A DNA stretch of 64,000 bases from Bacteroidota bacterium (GTDB lineage: Bacteria; Bacteroidota; Bacteroidia; Chitinophagales; UBA8649): positions 40,371 to 104,370 of the forward strand of contig PKDX01000047.1 of NCBI GenBank assembly GCA_002862745.1, in the 5' to 3' direction. Below, piece by piece: positions 7,699 to 47,982 of this stretch (the stretch's first letter is position 1; the number at the start of each line of letters is the position of its first letter). Below the pieces are notes generated by a model that did not search any database, was not told the origin of the DNA, and saw nothing but the letters and a program-made list of their open reading frames with translations. The position numbers were made by a program, and so were the translations under genes.

Positions 7699-9228
7699 TT
7701 ATTTTGTAGAGTTTTTGATAGTAATGGCTTTTCGAATGGCTTCTTCTTGGAAGTCTTGGAAGACATCAACAATATCATTGTCGATGGCACCGTCGCCTGT
7801 GTAGACAATCTCTAGTGCTGATCCTTCGGGAAGATCATTGAGCGCCTTAATTAAGGATGCCTTACGCAAATAGGTTGCATGCTTCGTTAGATGGAGCTGT
7901 AATTTCTTCGAATCTCCGCCAACCTGATCAAATACGATAGGCGATTTAAACTGCTTCCACATGATAAAAAAGACGGCGATAACAAGCCCTATGCTTACTC
8001 CTTTTAGTAAGTCCAAGAATAGGATCCCTGCAATGGTGGCAATAAATGGAATGAATTGTACATATCCTTTCTTCCACATTGCAATAAACAGACTTGGTTT
8101 AGCCAGCTTGTAACCCACTAAGAAGAGAATGGCAGCCAAAGAGGCAAAAGGAATCATGCTCAAGAATTGCGGAATGCTAAAGGCGCAAATCAGTAAAAGG
8201 AAACCGTGGATGATGGCCGAATACTTTGATTTTCCGCCGGATTGGATATTGGCCGAACTACGTACAATAACTTGAGTAATCGGAAGTCCCCCAATCAATC
8301 CTGAGATGATGTTTCCAATACCTTGTGCTTTTAACTCTCTATTGGTAGGTGTAGCGAAATGCTCTGGATCAAGCTTATCCGTTGCCTCAACACATAAAAG
8401 CGTTTCAAGGCTAGCCACAATCCATAACACAAAGGCAGTCGTGATGATCGGGTAGATTAAGCTTGTATCCTTAAATACAGACACATCAACGAGTTGAAAC
8501 TGTCCAAAGAATTTATTGGTGTAGGATGAAAAATCTTGGCCTCCGCTTAACAAGGCCTCCATGGATTCAGAACCAGGCATGTTCACGTGATGTCCTGCAA
8601 GAAGTTCTAACATAGATTGGCCTTTGAAAGCAACACCTAGCGCCACACCAAGGATCACCACTAATAGTGGACCCGGCATAATTCGGCTCCATGCCTGACT
8701 TTTTACCCACTTACTCTCATAGATTGCAAGGATAATTAGAGAGATGACGGTTATGGTAATAGGTCCGTAGGCAATTCCCTCAAAAAATCCGAGTTCAGGA
8801 CCAGCAGCCACTTTGATTTGGCCTAAGGCATGGGGTATCTCTTTGATAAAGATTACCAAGCCGATACCTGATAACATGCCTTTGATTACCGAGTTAGGAA
8901 AGAAATAGGCGATAACACCCATTCTGAGAAACCCTGAGGCAAGCTGAAGAACACCGGCTAAGACGACAGCCCATAAAAACGCGCTGTATCCAATTTCTCC
9001 GATAGCGGTTGCTACAATAACCGCTAAACCTGCGGCAGGTCCACTAACGCCAAGTCGGGAACCACTCAAGGCAGCTACTACGATTCCACCAATGATACCG
9101 GCGATAAGCCCTGCGAAAACATTGGGTGCATCGGACACCACTGCAATTCCCAAACAAAGTGGTAATGCGACAAAAAAAACAACAAGACTCGCAGGGACGT
9201 CTTGTTTCCAAGAAAATGAGTTATTCAT
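7699..9228 (-). CDS. SulP-family inorganic anion transporter with C-terminal STAS domain
   Basis: The N-terminal 400 aa are polytopic, hydrophobic and Gly-rich (GLIAGIIGGIVVAALSGS, VRSSANIQSGGKSKYS). A soluble STAS-like tail follows. It sits immediately upstream of a carbonic anhydrase. Confidence 0.85.
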   Translation of the reverse strand: MNNSFSWKQDVPASLVVFFVALPLCLGIAVVSDAPNVFAGLIAGIIGGIVVAALSGSRLGVSGPAAGLAVIVATAIGEIGYSAFLWAVVLAGVLQLASGFLRMGVIAYFFPNSVIKGMLSGIGLVIFIKEIPHALGQIKVAAGPELGFFEGIAYGPITITVISLIILAIYESKWVKSQAWSRIMPGPLLVVILGVALGVAFKGQSMLELLAGHHVNMPGSESMEALLSGGQDFSSYTNKFFGQFQLVDVSVFKDTSLIYPIITTAFVLWIVASLETLLCVEATDKLDPEHFATPTNRELKAQGIGNIISGLIGGLPITQVIVRSSANIQSGGKSKYSAIIHGFLLLICAFSIPQFLSMIPFASLAAILFLVGYKLAKPSLFIAMWKKGYVQFIPFIATIAGILFLDLLKGVSIGLVIAVFFIMWKQFKSPIVFDQVGGDSKKLQLHLTKHATYLRKASLIKALNDLPEGSALEIVYTGDGAIDNDIVDVFQDFQEEAIRKAITIKNSTK

Positions 9229-22681: not shown

Positions 22682-25081
22682 CTATTTGGGGTAGTTGCTC
22701 GGATTGGCTTCGTGCATCAAATCATACACTGCAGCATAGACATCATCTGCGCTAGGTTTGCTCCAGTAATCAGCATCGCTTCCATACGCACTGCGATGAG
22801 GCCGAGCGGCAATGGTAATCGGGGGGCTGTCAAGGTATTGGTAGGCACCTTGTTCTTCAATGATTTGTTGAAGAATAAAGCCTGATGCTCCGCCAGGAAC
22901 GTCTTCGTCTAAGACAGCGACCCTGTTTGTTTTTTTGATGGATTCAAGAATATTGCTATCGCAATCAAAGGGCAATAAGGTCTGTATGTCAATGAGTTCA
23001 ACGGAGATATTATCTGCTTCTAGCATGGCAATAGCTTGTTGGGCGATTCGCACGCATGAACCATAGGTTACTAAGGTAATATCATCTCCTTTTTGTAAGG
23101 TTTCTACCTCGCCCATGGGCACCGTGAATTCTCCTATGTTTGCCGGACATCGTTCTTTTAATCGATATCCATTGAGGCATTCTACTACAATAGCTGGCTC
23201 ATCACCCTCAAGGAGCGTGTTGTACATTCCCGCGGCTTGAGTCATATTTCTCGGTACGCAGACATTCATCCCTCGCAACGAGTTGAGCACCATCCCCATA
23301 GGAGACCCTGTGTGCCATATACCCTCCAAGCGGTGCCCCCTTGTTCGAATAATAACTGGACTTCGTTGCTGTCCTGCCGTTCTGTAGGTTAATGTCGCAA
23401 CATCATCTGCTAAAGGCTGTAGGCCGTAAATCAGGTAATCTAAGTATTGAATCTCAGCAATAGGACGTAATCCACGCATAGCCATGCCGATAGCCTGCCC
23501 CATGATGGTTAACTCTCGTATGCCTGTATCAAAGACTCGGTGCTCACCGTATTTTTCTTGTAGCCCGGCAAAGGCTTGATTTACATCACCAATTTTACCT
23601 ACATCTTCTCCAAAGGCTATAACCGCTGGATTGCGAGCCAACGCCGCATCAAAGGCAGCATTGAGAATTTCAAATCCATTAACCTCTTCTTGCTCGTCAA
23701 ACTCAGCGTCTACGATGCTGACATTTTGGGTATTTTTCTTCGTCTCACTAACCCAATGGCTTTGATAGGTTCTTTGACCTAAGTCGTTTATCTCTTCAAT
23801 AAACGATGATAGGTTTTGGTCTGATGCATTGTTTCTTCGAAGCACTCTGTGGGCTTCTTTTGCGATGCGAACAAGGTCTGAATACCCTGGATTGTAAAGG
23901 TCTTTTACCGAGGCTTTAAGATGGGAAATGGTTGCTTGGTTTGATTGTTCGATGAGTCGTTCTAATTCCTTGGCTTTTTCAAGTATCGGTTGCTGATAGG
24001 CTTTCCAAGCTTCTCTCTTAGCGGAATTAGCTGTTTTTTTTGTTTCTTTTTTAATCTGATCAACTTCTTCTTCAGTAAGAATAGCTTTATCGATAAGCCA
24101 CGTGCCCATACGTTGGATGCCATCTGCATTCTGCTCCCATGCGAGTCGCTCTTCGCTTTTGTAGCGTTCGTGAGAACCTGACGTGCTATGTCCCTGAGGT
24201 TGCGTTACCTCTTCAACATGAATGAGGGCAGGGATATGCTTTTCTCGAACGAGCGTACTTATCTTTTCAAAAGTTTGTACCAAGCCAGGATAGTCCCATG
24301 CTTTTGCTTTGACGATAATAACGCCCTCATCATGGTCATCGACCTGAAATCCTGAAAGAACCTCAGAAATACTCTCTTTAGTGGTTTGGTACTTTTTAGG
24401 TACAGATATACCATATCCGTCATCATAGACGACCGTGATCATTGGTATTTTCAACACACCCGCTGCATTAATCGCCTCCCAGAAATGTCCCTCGGACGTA
24501 GATGCATCGCCGATACTCACAAAACATACTTCTTGTCCCTTAGTCGAGAATTTGTTGTCCGTTTGAAGTTCTGGATTGTTTCGATAGAACTTAGAAGCTA
24601 AGGCTAGGCCCACAGCACGGGGCATTTGGCTTGCGGTCGATGAGACATCTGCTGCAACATTATACCTTGATTTGAGTTCTAACCAGTTACCCTCCTGATC
24701 AATTAGTGGGGTCGCGAAGTGAGCATTCATCTGTCTACCATGCGACATAGGTTCGTGATCGGGATTGCTATCCGCGTATAACTGAGCGAAGAATTGTGTT
24801 GGCGTGATAACACCAAGTGCGAGCATCCAGGTTTGGTCACGATAATAGCCCGAACGAAAATCACCAGGCTTGAAAGATCGGGCAAGCGCTACTTGAGTAA
24901 CCTCTTTGCCATCACCAAATATTCCGAATTTTCCTTTTCCTCCAAGGACTTCTTTGCGCCCTGCGAGACTCATCTCACGACTGAGGCATGCCGTCTTAAA
25001 ATCGTCAATTACTTGTTGTTTGAAACGCTGTGCCGGCGAGGAGTTGGATAGGTTTTTCTGTAGTGAGGCATCTCGTGACAT
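22682..25081 (-). CDS. 2-oxoacid dehydrogenase E1 component, long alpha/beta fusion (799 aa)
   Basis: Alpha-like TPP region SIGDASTSEGHFWEAINAAGVLKIPMITVVYDDGYGISVP. A charged helical linker of ~130 aa follows. The beta-like module is AFGEDVGKIGDVNQAF...FDTGIRELTIMGQAIGMA. It lies directly downstream of an E2 gene on the same strand. Confidence 0.8.
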   Translation of the reverse strand: MSRDASLQKNLSNSSPAQRFKQQVIDDFKTACLSREMSLAGRKEVLGGKGKFGIFGDGKEVTQVALARSFKPGDFRSGYYRDQTWMLALGVITPTQFFAQLYADSNPDHEPMSHGRQMNAHFATPLIDQEGNWLELKSRYNVAADVSSTASQMPRAVGLALASKFYRNNPELQTDNKFSTKGQEVCFVSIGDASTSEGHFWEAINAAGVLKIPMITVVYDDGYGISVPKKYQTTKESISEVLSGFQVDDHDEGVIIVKAKAWDYPGLVQTFEKISTLVREKHIPALIHVEEVTQPQGHSTSGSHERYKSEERLAWEQNADGIQRMGTWLIDKAILTEEEVDQIKKETKKTANSAKREAWKAYQQPILEKAKELERLIEQSNQATISHLKASVKDLYNPGYSDLVRIAKEAHRVLRRNNASDQNLSSFIEEINDLGQRTYQSHWVSETKKNTQNVSIVDAEFDEQEEVNGFEILNAAFDAALARNPAVIAFGEDVGKIGDVNQAFAGLQEKYGEHRVFDTGIRELTIMGQAIGMAMRGLRPIAEIQYLDYLIYGLQPLADDVATLTYRTAGQQRSPVIIRTRGHRLEGIWHTGSPMGMVLNSLRGMNVCVPRNMTQAAGMYNTLLEGDEPAIVVECLNGYRLKERCPANIGEFTVPMGEVETLQKGDDITLVTYGSCVRIAQQAIAMLEADNISVELIDIQTLLPFDCDSNILESIKKTNRVAVLDEDVPGGASGFILQQIIEEQGAYQYLDSPPITIAARPHRSAYGSDADYWSKPSADDVYAAVYDLMHEANPSNYPK

Positions 25082-25128: not shown

Positions 25129-26388
25129 CTAGAGCAACATACTCACTGGATTCTCCAAGTGACCTTTTAAGGTGGCTAGGAAGGCTGCACCAACTGCTCC
25201 ATCGACAACGCGATGATCACAGGATAAGGTGAGTTTCATCATTTGCTTCTCTACCAACTCTCCATCTTCAAGTGCTAGTTCAGGGCGAATGGCACCTACA
25301 GCAAGAATACATGCATCTGGTGGGTTAACAATGGCAGTAAACTCATCGATTCCCATCATTCCAAGATTAGAGATGCTAAACGTATTACCCTGCATTTCTT
25401 CTGAAGCAAGTTGTCGTTGTCTTGCCTTTTCTACAAAACCTCGAGCGGCAGCTGAAATTTCAGAAAGGCCTAGTTGATCTGCATGCTTGATTACAGGAAC
25501 TACAAGCCCTTCGTCAACAGCTACGGCCATTCCAATATTGATATCCGCATGATAGCGAATGATATCTCCAAGCCATGAAGCATTAATATTCGGGTGCTTA
25601 CGCAGCGCCATAGCACAAGCCTTGATGACTAAATCATTAAAGGAGAACTTCATATCGAAGGCAGCCTTAATCTCTTTTCTTGCCTCCATTGCATTACGCA
25701 TGTCGACAGAAACCTTCAAGTAGAAATGAGGAGCGGTAAATTTACTTTCACTGAGTCGTTTAGCAATTGTCTTTCGCATCATACTTACACGCTCATCACG
25801 CGCCTCTAAGGTGGCGGTGAATACTTTGTTTACTGATGGTGTCGGATTTTCTGCATACGCTTCAACGTCACGCTTCACGATACGCCCATCTTCACCAGAA
25901 CCTTGTACATTGGATAAGTTGACCTTAAAGTCTTCTGCCATTTTACGTGCTAAAGGGCTTGCTTTTACCCGGCTATCCTCATTGGAGGAAGTAGGTTGAC
26001 TTTGTGGTGCCTGACTTACTTCTTTTACGCTAGGTGCCGGTGCAGATACTTCTGTACTTGGTTTATCAGCTTCTGGTGCAGCAGGTTGCTCGGCAGGAGC
26101 GGCAGGAGCTTCTTCTTCTGCTGAGTTTAGCAATTCTTCGAAAGATTCTCCCTCTTCACCTAGAATAGCTACTCGTCCATTAACTGGAATGGCATCACCT
26201 TCTCCCGCAATGATATGAAGTACAACGCCTTCCTGATCTGATTCCCAATCCATTGCTGCCTTATCCGTTTCAACTTCACCAATCAAGTCACCTGGGTTGA
26301 GGGTGTCACCTACTTTTATTGCAATAGAAGCGATTACTCCTTCTTCCATTGTATCACTCATGCGGGGTAGTCTTAAAAATTCGGCCAT
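25129..26388 (-). CDS. Dihydrolipoamide acyltransferase (E2) of a 2-oxoacid dehydrogenase complex
   Basis: Lipoyl domain (GEVETDKAAMDWES), an Ala/Pro-rich linker, an E3/E1-binding segment (ASPLARKMAEDFKVNL) and the catalytic motif SCDHRVVDGA. Confidence 0.9.
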   Translation of the reverse strand: MAEFLRLPRMSDTMEEGVIASIAIKVGDTLNPGDLIGEVETDKAAMDWESDQEGVVLHIIAGEGDAIPVNGRVAILGEEGESFEELLNSAEEEAPAAPAEQPAAPEADKPSTEVSAPAPSVKEVSQAPQSQPTSSNEDSRVKASPLARKMAEDFKVNLSNVQGSGEDGRIVKRDVEAYAENPTPSVNKVFTATLEARDERVSMMRKTIAKRLSESKFTAPHFYLKVSVDMRNAMEARKEIKAAFDMKFSFNDLVIKACAMALRKHPNINASWLGDIIRYHADINIGMAVAVDEGLVVPVIKHADQLGLSEISAAARGFVEKARQRQLASEEMQGNTFSISNLGMMGIDEFTAIVNPPDACILAVGAIRPELALEDGELVEKQMMKLTLSCDHRVVDGAVGAAFLATLKGHLENPVSMLL

Positions 26389-26448: not shown

Positions 26449-28326
26449 TTAAGCCGAATAATCAATCTCCAAGCCTAGGTCATCGATGAAGTTTCGCATT
26501 GCTGGATTCTTTTCGTGCATTAACTCGGCTGATTTTTTTGCGTTCTGTAAAACGCCTTTCTTCTCTTGCTTCCCTTGTTGTATGTAAACTATGCAAAGCG
26601 TGGGTGCATCGGATAATCTTTCTTGGATGTAATTATTAATCGGTGCCATGTGCGTTTCTATAAAATCCTTTTGCGCACTAGCTGTCGCGGTAAAAATCAA
26701 ATTTTTGTCTTCCAGGGAGGTATCGAGTTTGGCTAAAATACTTGCCACGGATTGCTGGTCATTTTGTTTTAGGTATTCCTCCACTTGGGCAAGAATGGAT
26801 TCGATTTTTTGATCCCAAGAAATTCTTTGAACATTCTCTTCGGGACTTACTGGTTTCTCTTCTGTTTTCGGAGGTAGTAATTCCTCAGTATCCAAATCTT
26901 CAAGGCGTAAACGTTTGCCCTTTGTTGTTGCCGAGCTAGGTGATTTGCTGTCAACAGGTAGATCCTCTACAGTCGTGTGTGTTTCGATTTGAGAGCTTGA
27001 GGTCTCCTTCGCCTGTGCATCAGTTTGTTTCTCGGGATGTTTTTCTGTCTGTTTATTGTTGACTGCAGTTGGCGCAGAGTGAGTAGATGCCTCCTCTAAT
27101 GATTCCCTAGGTTCAATGGATTTGGCGACTTCTTTAGTTCCGATATCTAGTGAATCAGAGCGGTTTTCTTGCGAAGTATTATTGGATTGTGGGGGAGTAG
27201 CGGTGCTAGGCGCCTTATCTAGCTCAGCCGTTTTTTTTTTAATCGCGCCTCCTTCTATTACTTGCGATGCATGGGCTATACGAATCAAACATACTTCTAC
27301 ATGAAGGCGCTTATTTAGTGCTCTCTGATAGCTTACTTCTGCATCATTTATTAAGGCAAGCGCATTGATTAGAAAGGATGGGGTAGCAAGCTCAGCTTGC
27401 TCAGAGGCTCTTTGTATTTTTTTCTCACTTCCCATCATAAGGGAGTGCAAGCGGGCATCTTTCGCAATCAACAGCGTGCGGATGTATTCGGCTAGACCTT
27501 GCATAAAGGTATCTCCTTCAAAGCCTTGTTCTAGCACTTGGTTGAAGAGGGAAATCGCCCTTCCATGATCATTGATCATTAGACCTTCCGTTGTTTCTGA
27601 AAACGTTGACCAATCCAGAATGTTAAGTTGTTGTAAAACGGAGGCTTGTGTGAGTTTGCTGTCATCTAATCCTGCCACAAGTCGGTCAAAAACTGACAGG
27701 GCATCACGTAAGGCTCCATCAGCAGATTCTGCGATAATGTGGTAAGCTTCTTCCTCTACGTCGTATTGTTCCGCCTGGGCCACATGTTTGAGTTGCTGAA
27801 TAATAGATGGAACACTAATCCTCTTGAAATCAAAAATTTGACAACGGGATAAAATGGTGGGAAGAATCTTGTGCTTTTCAGTCGTTGCTAGAATGAAAAT
27901 AGCATAGGGTGGGGGCTCTTCCAACGTCTTTAAAAAGGCGTTGAAAGCTGCTTGAGATAGCATGTGTACCTCATCAATGATATAGATTTTGTATCGACCC
28001 GTTTGAGGAGGTATGCGCACTTGCTCCATCAAACTACGCATGTCTTCCACCTTGTTATTTGAAGCGGCGTCAAGTTCAAAAATGTTGAAGGCAAAATCCT
28101 CGTTTTCTTCAGAAAGTCCGTCAATCTTACTAAGATTTACGGCTTTTGCTAGGATTCTTGCTGTTGTGGTTTTTCCTACGCCTCGCGGTCCACAAAACAA
28201 AAAGGCCTGGGCAATCTTTTCAGCAGTAATGGCGCGCGAAAGCGTCTCGGTGATACTTTCTTGACCGACAACTTCTTTGAAATCTTTCGGTCTGTATTTC
28301 CTTGCTGAGACGATAAATTGGCCCAT
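26449..28326 (-). CDS. dnaX: DNA polymerase III subunit tau (gamma/tau)
   Basis: Walker A GPRGVGKTT, Walker B IIDEVHML, and SRC motif LSRCQIF. A low-complexity linker and a C-terminal tau-type domain follow. Confidence 0.92.
   Translation of the reverse strand: MGQFIVSARKYRPKDFKEVVGQESITETLSRAITAEKIAQAFLFCGPRGVGKTTTARILAKAVNLSKIDGLSEENEDFAFNIFELDAASNNKVEDMRSLMEQVRIPPQTGRYKIYIIDEVHMLSQAAFNAFLKTLEEPPPYAIFILATTEKHKILPTILSRCQIFDFKRISVPSIIQQLKHVAQAEQYDVEEEAYHIIAESADGALRDALSVFDRLVAGLDDSKLTQASVLQQLNILDWSTFSETTEGLMINDHGRAISLFNQVLEQGFEGDTFMQGLAEYIRTLLIAKDARLHSLMMGSEKKIQRASEQAELATPSFLINALALINDAEVSYQRALNKRLHVEVCLIRIAHASQVIEGGAIKKKTAELDKAPSTATPPQSNNTSQENRSDSLDIGTKEVAKSIEPRESLEEASTHSAPTAVNNKQTEKHPEKQTDAQAKETSSSQIETHTTVEDLPVDSKSPSSATTKGKRLRLEDLDTEELLPPKTEEKPVSPEENVQRISWDQKIESILAQVEEYLKQNDQQSVASILAKLDTSLEDKNLIFTATASAQKDFIETHMAPINNYIQERLSDAPTLCIVYIQQGKQEKKGVLQNAKKSAELMHEKNPAMRNFIDDLGLEIDYSA
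27231..27240 (-). other. A10 homopolymer (T10 on the plus strand) inside dnaX: candidate slippery site for frameshifting or transcriptional slippage
   Basis: The coding strand reads ATT AAA AAA AAA ACG GCT GAG CTA G. The -1 frame gives AAC GGC TGA. The +1 frame gives CGG CTG AGC TAG. I worked this out base by base from the sequence. Confidence 0.5.
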
Positions 28327-28645
28327 GCCATGAAAGTAGGTATAAATCTTAGAATTGTGTCTTATAGAATATGAGCTTTATACACAAAATTCTGGCTAAA
28401 AGCGGGTGCTGAGCTTAGCTAAATCAAAAAAGTTTCATTTTTCTTGATTTTTTTTAATTCACTGGTGATCATTTAGGACCCAGTTAAAATGTTTTATGAG
28501 TATTTGAAGGATAGCACTTTACATATTGACTCTTTTTATATATATGGAAAATTCTATGTATAAGTGCTGTAAATCACTGAAATACAGTGTTTTGGGTCTT
28601 GAATTTTTGGTGTTTTTATGCAAAATTCAATTACCTTAGTTCTCG

Positions 28646-47914: not shown

Positions 47915-47982
47915 CAAAATTTCAGCAAGGAAGGTTTTATTTTTAAAGGCATAGTTTTTGACCTTTTATTCTAAAAAAAATT

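Follow-up and report, generated by a model that had tools for sequence, protein, structure and literature searches.

The window considered here, a 64-kb stretch of contig PKDX01000047.1 from a member of the Bacteroidota, carries on its minus strand a dnaX gene in which an unbroken run of ten adenines (A10) is closely followed by stop codons in both alternative reading frames; the run is probably a programmed slippage site, from which the one gene would supply both a full-length DnaX subunit (tau) and a shorter one (gamma). The open reading frame (ORF) at 26449-28326 (minus strand; 625 amino acids, aa) is clearly DnaX. It holds the motifs GPRGVGKTT (Walker A), DEVHML and SRC, and its product matches the Pfam families DNA_pol3_delta2, AAA, DNAX_ATPase_lid and DNA_pol3_gamma3 (E-values of 7e-35 for PF13177, 7e-12 for PF22608 and 1e-11 for PF12169), all above the curated cut-offs; the AAA+ clamp-loader module with lid and domain III, by which members of the DnaX family are recognised, is present, and a protein search returned 8000 DnaX homologues. 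Domain III (PF12169) spans residues 226-357 and covers profile positions 2-134 of 143, which places K363-K365, the lysines encoded by the run, at the end of the clamp-loader core. In the relatives described below, homology to the shared N-terminal part stops just 5′ of the run. The 260 residues that follow the run in the window matched no significant Pfam family in a Pfam scan; PF28557/DUF8439 is present in the tau tails of relatives. The features of the gene are as follows (all on the minus strand).

26449-28326: dnaX ORF with tau in frame 0, 625 aa; ATG at 28324-28326, TAA at 26449-26451 (from the ORF list and Pfam)
27232-28326: part common to tau and the predicted gamma, residues 1-365 (ATPase domains I-II, domain III and KKK; from Pfam and the homology of relatives)
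27231-27240: A10, putative slippery run (T10 on the plus strand); codons AAA AAA AAA and the first base of ACG
27224-27226: TGA, stop of the -1 frame after AAC GGC, two codons past the run; predicted product ...KKK-N-G, 367 aa, 41.0 kDa
27219-27221: TAG, stop of the +1 frame after CGG CTG AGC, three codons past the run; predicted product ...KKK-R-L-S, 368 aa, 41.2 kDa
26449-27231: tau-specific tail, residues 366-625; low-complexity linker and conserved C-terminal domain ending ...DDLGLEIDYSA

The minus strand around the run reads GCG ATT AAA AAA AAA ACG GCT GAG CTA GAT, of which ATT to CTA G corresponds to 27219-27243. Frame 0 stays open for 260 codons past the run, and tau (predicted mass 69.7 kDa) is one continuous ORF. 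The TGA of the -1 frame is reached by a transcript with one additional A or by a -1 ribosomal shift, and the TAG of the +1 frame by a transcript with one A fewer or two A's more, or by a +1 shift; the gamma products would have masses of 41.0 kDa (NG end) or 41.2 kDa (RLS end). A preliminary description of this DNA had given the A10 at 27231-27240, its reading as I-KKK-TAELD and both off-frame stops, and on re-reading the sequence every detail proved correct; the core motifs that it listed are likewise in the 625-aa ORF, and its placing of the run at the boundary between clamp-loader core and tau tail agrees with the limits of PF12169.

This run is the sole homopolymer of at least 9 bases in the window, for which, by extrapolation from run-length counts, a few tenths of an A/T run of at least 10 are expected per 64 kb. 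The lysine codons of the gene are AAA and AAG in a ratio of 2:1 (30 vs 15), and an uninterrupted A-run is therefore not the default of its codon usage. At control codon positions in dnaX genes, both off-frame stops fall within three codons in 4.3% of cases. By itself the A10 run is unusual, not decisive, and the case from the single genome is suggestive only.

Shorter runs occur elsewhere in the window. Within dnaX itself, a run of seven A's lies in codons 302-304 (27417-27423, minus strand; gene nucleotide (nt) 904). L001 shares this run and L002 does not; the corresponding residues in relatives are KKK. Other 8-nt A/T runs are at 24034-24041, 9172-9179, 47973-47980 and 28448-28455. The first of these, T8 on the plus strand, is A8 in the sense strand of a 799-aa ORF (22682-25081) located just downstream of a putative dihydrolipoamide acyltransferase (E2) gene, and the last is intergenic, upstream of dnaX.

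Conservation of the run and of the off-frame stops

The close relatives comprise nine distinct sequences of 63-99% aa identity. A scan of genome contigs contributed just two metagenome-assembled genomes (MAGs), a Saprospirales MAG (85% aa identity) and a Chitinophagales MAG (77%), and DNA was fetched for six more proteins of the same clade. AAA AAA AAA A occurs at the same place in all nine; in L087 a C-to-A change (ACG to AAG) extends it to A11, giving AAA AAA AAA AAG, and only by this substitution does a close relative acquire the A_AAA_AAG heptamer, which is missing from the window (where a C follows the run) and from the others. The stop in the +1 frame lies three codons past the run in 9/9 sequences, and that in the -1 frame two codons past it in 8/9, with a distance of one codon in L087. 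The identity of the stops varies (TGA or TAA in the -1 frame, TAG or TAA in the +1 frame), as do the synonymous sites flanking the run and the frame-0 peptides that follow KKK (TAELD, TAKLD, TDDLG, TADLA, TVELD and KAELN); the -1-frame stop is kept despite the resulting frame-0 changes of E to K, A to D and A to V. The A10 allele was obtained independently in nine close-clade assemblies from different projects, and a 99%-identical full-length protein (P0001) stands for 26 member sequences.

A more distant set was assembled by scanning metagenomes with a Bacteroidota-like DnaX profile, which yielded 80 loci, 78 of them usable at the boundary; these loci carry no taxonomy, and their aa identity is 48-56% over the N-terminal 362 residues, as far as these are aligned in full. 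In 44/78 an A8-A11 run is found no more than a few tens of nt from where domain III ends. Together with the window, L001 and L002, these loci give 47 sites for analysis, at which run length has its mode at 10 (A10 at 29 sites, A11 at nine, A9 at eight and A8 at one). The runs start in codon phases 0, 1 and 2 and encode different residues (KKK, EKKN, EKKK and others); since all three phases occur, it is the nucleotides that are conserved and not the KKK. Elsewhere in the 82 related loci, A/T runs of at least 9 occur at 0.035 per kb, whereas the boundary holds 46 such runs in 78 windows of ~250 nt (~19.5 kb), a ~60-fold enrichment.

Every run-bearing locus has exactly one open frame, of more than 190 codons wherever the contig reaches. 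The other two frames both end within 3, 5 and 8 codons at 40%, 79% and 94% of the 47 sites, respectively, compared with 4%, 11% and 22% of control positions in the same genes. We regard these comparative data as decisive: as judged from the sequences, the run together with the closure of both frames is a selected nucleotide-level signal.

The surroundings of the gene are also conserved. In L083, L084, L086, L087 and L088 a 2-oxoacid dehydrogenase E2 gene with biotin_lipoyl, E3_binding and 2-oxoacid_dh domains lies ~60 nt 3′ of dnaX. A 419-aa ORF of the window (25129-26388, minus strand) equals these genes in position and size and is a putative E2 gene; the dnaX-E2 synteny is probably shared between the window and L083-L088.

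Gene layouts and variation in run length

The run serves two gene layouts. Of the 44 run-bearing distant loci, 33 carry tau in frame 0, nine in the -1 frame and two in the +1 frame; in the 11 latter loci gamma is in frame, the frame-0 ORF stopping just past the run while tau continues in a shifted frame. The window, with tau in frame 0, does not have this two-ORF layout, which is seen in relatives L006, L011, L023, L032, L040, L068, L069, L070, L072, L076, L082, L094 and L096, with tau in the +1 frame in L006, L070 and L094. The existence of loci with gamma in frame accounts for the many 'DnaX' proteins of 362-371 aa, ending in KKK and one to three further residues, that the protein search returned.

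Near-identical genes can differ by a single A. L090-L093 have A10 with tau in frame, and their protein (P0045) was found on 19 contigs; L094, at 97% DNA identity, has A11 and gamma in frame. Likewise, L095 has A10 and its relative L096 has A9. These single-A differences could be true polymorphism or homopolymer assembly errors. In characterised bacteria tau is essential (10.1101/2022.11.10.516041), and flips in run length would therefore be tolerable only with efficient slippage. A more speculative reading, which we consider improbable, is that in this lineage of the Bacteroidota A-tract length in the genome acts as a fast-evolving heritable dial of the tau:gamma ratio, near-identical strains with A9, A10 or A11 swapping the default subunit while two-way slippage at the RNA level keeps the gene working. 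If true, this would amount to strain-level tuning of replisome composition, close to phase variation, and not to a fixed 1:1 device.

Two further loci have a divided dnaX gene and no A-run. At L053 (2309-2716) frame 0 ends with ...GAG GGA AAA TAA (stop at 2352) and a tau-like tail is in the -1 frame. Directly 5′ of the stop stands the canonical -1 slippery heptamer G_GGA_AAA, and the locus is possibly a two-ORF dnaX read by ribosomal frameshifting. At L050 (1217-1978) a frame-0 TGA at 1258 is followed by a tail in the +1 frame, with a 41-nt overlap of the ORFs and no obvious slippery motif; this arrangement could reflect an assembly indel, a pseudogene or another recoding signal.

Origin of the predicted gamma subunit

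The comparative sequences support, with a probability that we put at about 0.7, a model in which the A10 run is a programmed slippage site and the single dnaX gene gives rise to two clamp-loader subunits, a ~41-kDa gamma and the 69.7-kDa tau, by transcriptional slippage of the type described for Thermus, possibly with some ribosomal frameshifting. On the T10 template the RNA:DNA hybrid would consist solely of rA:dT pairs and could realign by one or more positions, producing mRNAs with runs such as A9, A10, A11 or A12. Tau would be made from transcripts with 10 or 10±3n A's, and on the remainder ribosomes would meet TGA (after N-G) or TAG (after R-L-S) and release gamma, consisting of domains I-III only; the portion of tau to which the replicative helicase and the polymerase bind in characterised bacteria would be missing. 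Some of the gamma ending in KKK-N-G may also come from ribosomal -1 slippage on A_AAA_AAA. Several features favour transcription as the level at which slippage occurs. The run is kept at 9-11 nt, approximately the length of the RNA:DNA hybrid, though ribosomes would need no more than a heptamer; stops close the two alternative frames, as in Thermus, when a -1 frameshift calls for just one closed frame; and relatives place tau in either alternative frame. Additionally, no stimulator appears to be conserved. In bacterial coding regions A/T runs are typically selected against from 9 nt upwards, an effect that has been attributed to slippage of RNA polymerase (PMC1088944) and argues in the same direction.

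The search for a stimulator covered both structure and upstream sequence. A scan of the dnaX region against Rfam, with E-values up to 10, returned no dnaX frameshift element and just chance matches to snoRNA and miRNA families. Folding of 60-130 nt upstream and downstream of the run in the window gave nothing better than shuffled sequences (z from +0.1 to +1.5); the downstream folds, at z of +0.43 and +0.54, provide no 3′ stem-loop. Across the 47 sites structure was not significant either, with mean z of -0.67 upstream and -0.31 downstream. The 5-bp GCTAG/CTAGC hairpin downstream of the run was discarded as a stimulator, being conserved in neither L001 nor L083 and not significant in folding. 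The run is preceded, at a distance of 7 nt, by a Shine-Dalgarno-like (SD-like) AGGAGG (27248-27253, minus strand); L001 and L002 have AAGGAG, and across the sites there is a weak G-rich tendency at -4/-3. AGGAGG is unlikely to be a conserved stimulator, an SD-like element being absent from L083 and L084; it is probably incidental, deriving from Glu-Gly-Gly codons. A tRNA scan for the tRNA-Lys repertoire found no tRNA genes within the window.

Ribosomal -1 frameshifting on A_AAA_AAA could instead be the main route, as in Escherichia coli dnaX, with a homogeneous mRNA on which some ribosomes would move back by one base at the Lys codons and end at the TGA after N-G. The window has the heptamer in phase, with the -1 stop two codons on, the AGGAGG 7 nt 5′ of the run recalls the upstream stimulator of E. 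coli (PMC5009743), and two-ORF relatives have tau more often in the -1 than in the +1 frame (9 vs 2). This route would, however, require neither a run held at 9-11 nt, where a heptamer would do, nor a +1 frame that is also closed within a few codons, and it does not accommodate the relatives with tau in the +1 frame (L006, L070 and L094). There is no conserved 3′ hairpin or Rfam match, the SD-like motif does not appear to be conserved, and in E. coli A_AAA_AAA reportedly shifts much less readily than A_AAA_AAG (PMC5009743). We consider it unlikely that this is the principal source of gamma, but hold it to be a credible proposition. The run might alternatively be a Lys-rich hinge with no recoding at all, its off-frame stops being incidental or serving the quick abort of erroneous frameshift products: AAA is the preferred Lys codon (30 vs 15), a genome of 43% GC makes off-frame stops common, and ~40% of relatives manage without a run. 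This is hard to reconcile with a run that is found in all three codon phases, encoding different residues, and ~60-fold above background, or with off-frame stops far nearer than at control positions; moreover, relatives in which frame 0 ends right after the run and the essential tau tail follows in another frame need recoding (PMC3711429). A phenomenon at the level of DNA, or an artefact, is as improbable as the hinge, each having in our estimate very little chance of being correct. The run would then be a hotspot of replication slippage, with a phase-variation-like switch between tau and gamma alleles, or its length would be mis-assembled; near-identical genes one A apart (A10 vs A11; A10 vs A9) fit this reading, and homopolymers are prone to sequencing errors and to mutation during replication (PMC1088944). 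Against it stand the A10 of the nine close-clade assemblies from different projects, the 26 member sequences of P0001 and the 19 contigs with the A10 allele of P0045, and a heritable switch to gamma alone would probably be lethal unless slippage at the RNA level came to the rescue, tau being essential (10.1101/2022.11.10.516041). The lysine-hinge and assembly-artefact readings were accordingly rejected on codon phase, enrichment, stop proximity, the two-ORF relatives and the repeated recovery of A10.

Some observations nonetheless weigh against programmed transcriptional slippage as we propose it. Any run of at least 9 A's holds an in-phase A_AAA_AAA, and a ribosomal -1 shift on it gives an identical KKK-N-G end. 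About 30 of the sampled relatives (~40%) have no run and a continuous tau ORF (for example L031, L033, L038 and L052, from the L017-L075 subset), and gamma formed by this route would for that reason be widespread, not universal, in the phylum; many of the run-less loci are from gut metagenomes, and both this origin and their sequences suggest that they are Bacteroidales-like. Some of the two-ORF cases could be homopolymer assembly errors, and we found no experimental work on RNA or protein from dnaX slippage in the Bacteroidota in the searchable literature.

The preliminary description had proposed that slippage at this site would end DnaX at about residue 367-368 as a gamma-like protein, a proposal that the conserved run and stops support on sequence grounds. 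It had suggested an alignment of related genes, and in that alignment the uninterrupted run and the near off-frame stops are kept while flanking codons and frame-0 residues vary. Its doubt about a stimulating structure was well placed, the hairpin not being conserved and the folds not significant, and its view that transcriptional slippage is at least as likely as stimulated frameshifting is likewise supported.

Relation to known dnaX systems and significance

The closest parallel for the window is dnaX of Thermus thermophilus (Larsen et al. 2000), in which, according to later accounts (PMC1088944, PMC5009743), an A9 run with near stops in both frames yields tau and gamma at ~1:1 by transcriptional slippage. 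The two genes share a single tau ORF, a sense-strand A-run after the clamp-loader core, near stops in both alternative frames and no required stimulatory structure; the window has the sequence features of the Thermus type throughout, namely an A-run of at least ~9 nt, a continuous tau ORF and near stops in both frames. They differ in that the run here is A10 and not A9, that the host is a mesophilic, marine member of the Bacteroidota (Saprospirales/Chitinophagales-like; 43% GC) in which slippage is predicted from the sequence, and that the run here comes immediately where domain III ends (residue 363 of 625).

Tracts of this kind in Bacteroidota are not new, contrary to the preliminary description, which was aware of none described for the phylum. 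Antonov et al. 2013 (PMC3711429) listed 17 two-ORF dnaX genes, nine of them with A10 tracts, and predicted transcriptional realignment; the A10 genes include those of Flavobacterium johnsoniae, F. psychrophilum, Cytophaga hutchinsonii and Capnocytophaga ochracea, several Chlorobi and Coraliomargarita (PMC3711429, Suppl. Fig. S3). Several of these organisms belong to the same phylum as the window, and the A10 tract, its position in the gene and the predicted mechanism (programmed transcriptional realignment) are shared; the context of the run in L032 is almost equal to the published one of F. johnsoniae. In those genes, however, gamma is in frame 0 and tau is reached by a shift, and the window shows the reverse. 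The single-ORF form is undetectable by the frameshift-detection approach of Antonov et al., and is the majority form in our sample (33 vs 11); we found neither the tau-in-frame form in Bacteroidota nor its predominance reported in the searchable literature.

The dnaX gene of E. coli is alike in giving a gamma that lacks the C-terminal part of tau, with a stop soon after a -1 shift, but there the shift takes place later in the protein (gamma has 431 residues), on A_AAA_AAG, accompanied by an SD-like element upstream of the site and a stem-loop 3′ of it; the run in the window has no AAG, stem-loop or Rfam match, and the SD-like element near it does not appear to be conserved. Caulobacter crescentus also derives a shorter gamma-like DnaX from a tau-encoding gene, through ClpXP (10.1101/2022.11.10.516041), although the route there is proteolysis after translation, with no slippery signal in the nucleotides.

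If confirmed, the reading proposed here would lend further weight to the view that possession of both tau and gamma is under selection across bacteria, and it opens no new question beyond that. Thermus-type dnaX slippage would extend to a large group of environmental Bacteroidota, in which the same tract serves tau-in-frame and gamma-in-frame layouts, the former commoner in our sample and invisible to pipelines that search for frameshifts. For annotation, this would mean that short 'DnaX' ORFs (362-371 aa) from these genomes should not be taken for pseudogenes, and that full-length genes such as dnaX of the window probably also encode an unannotated gamma of ~41 kDa.

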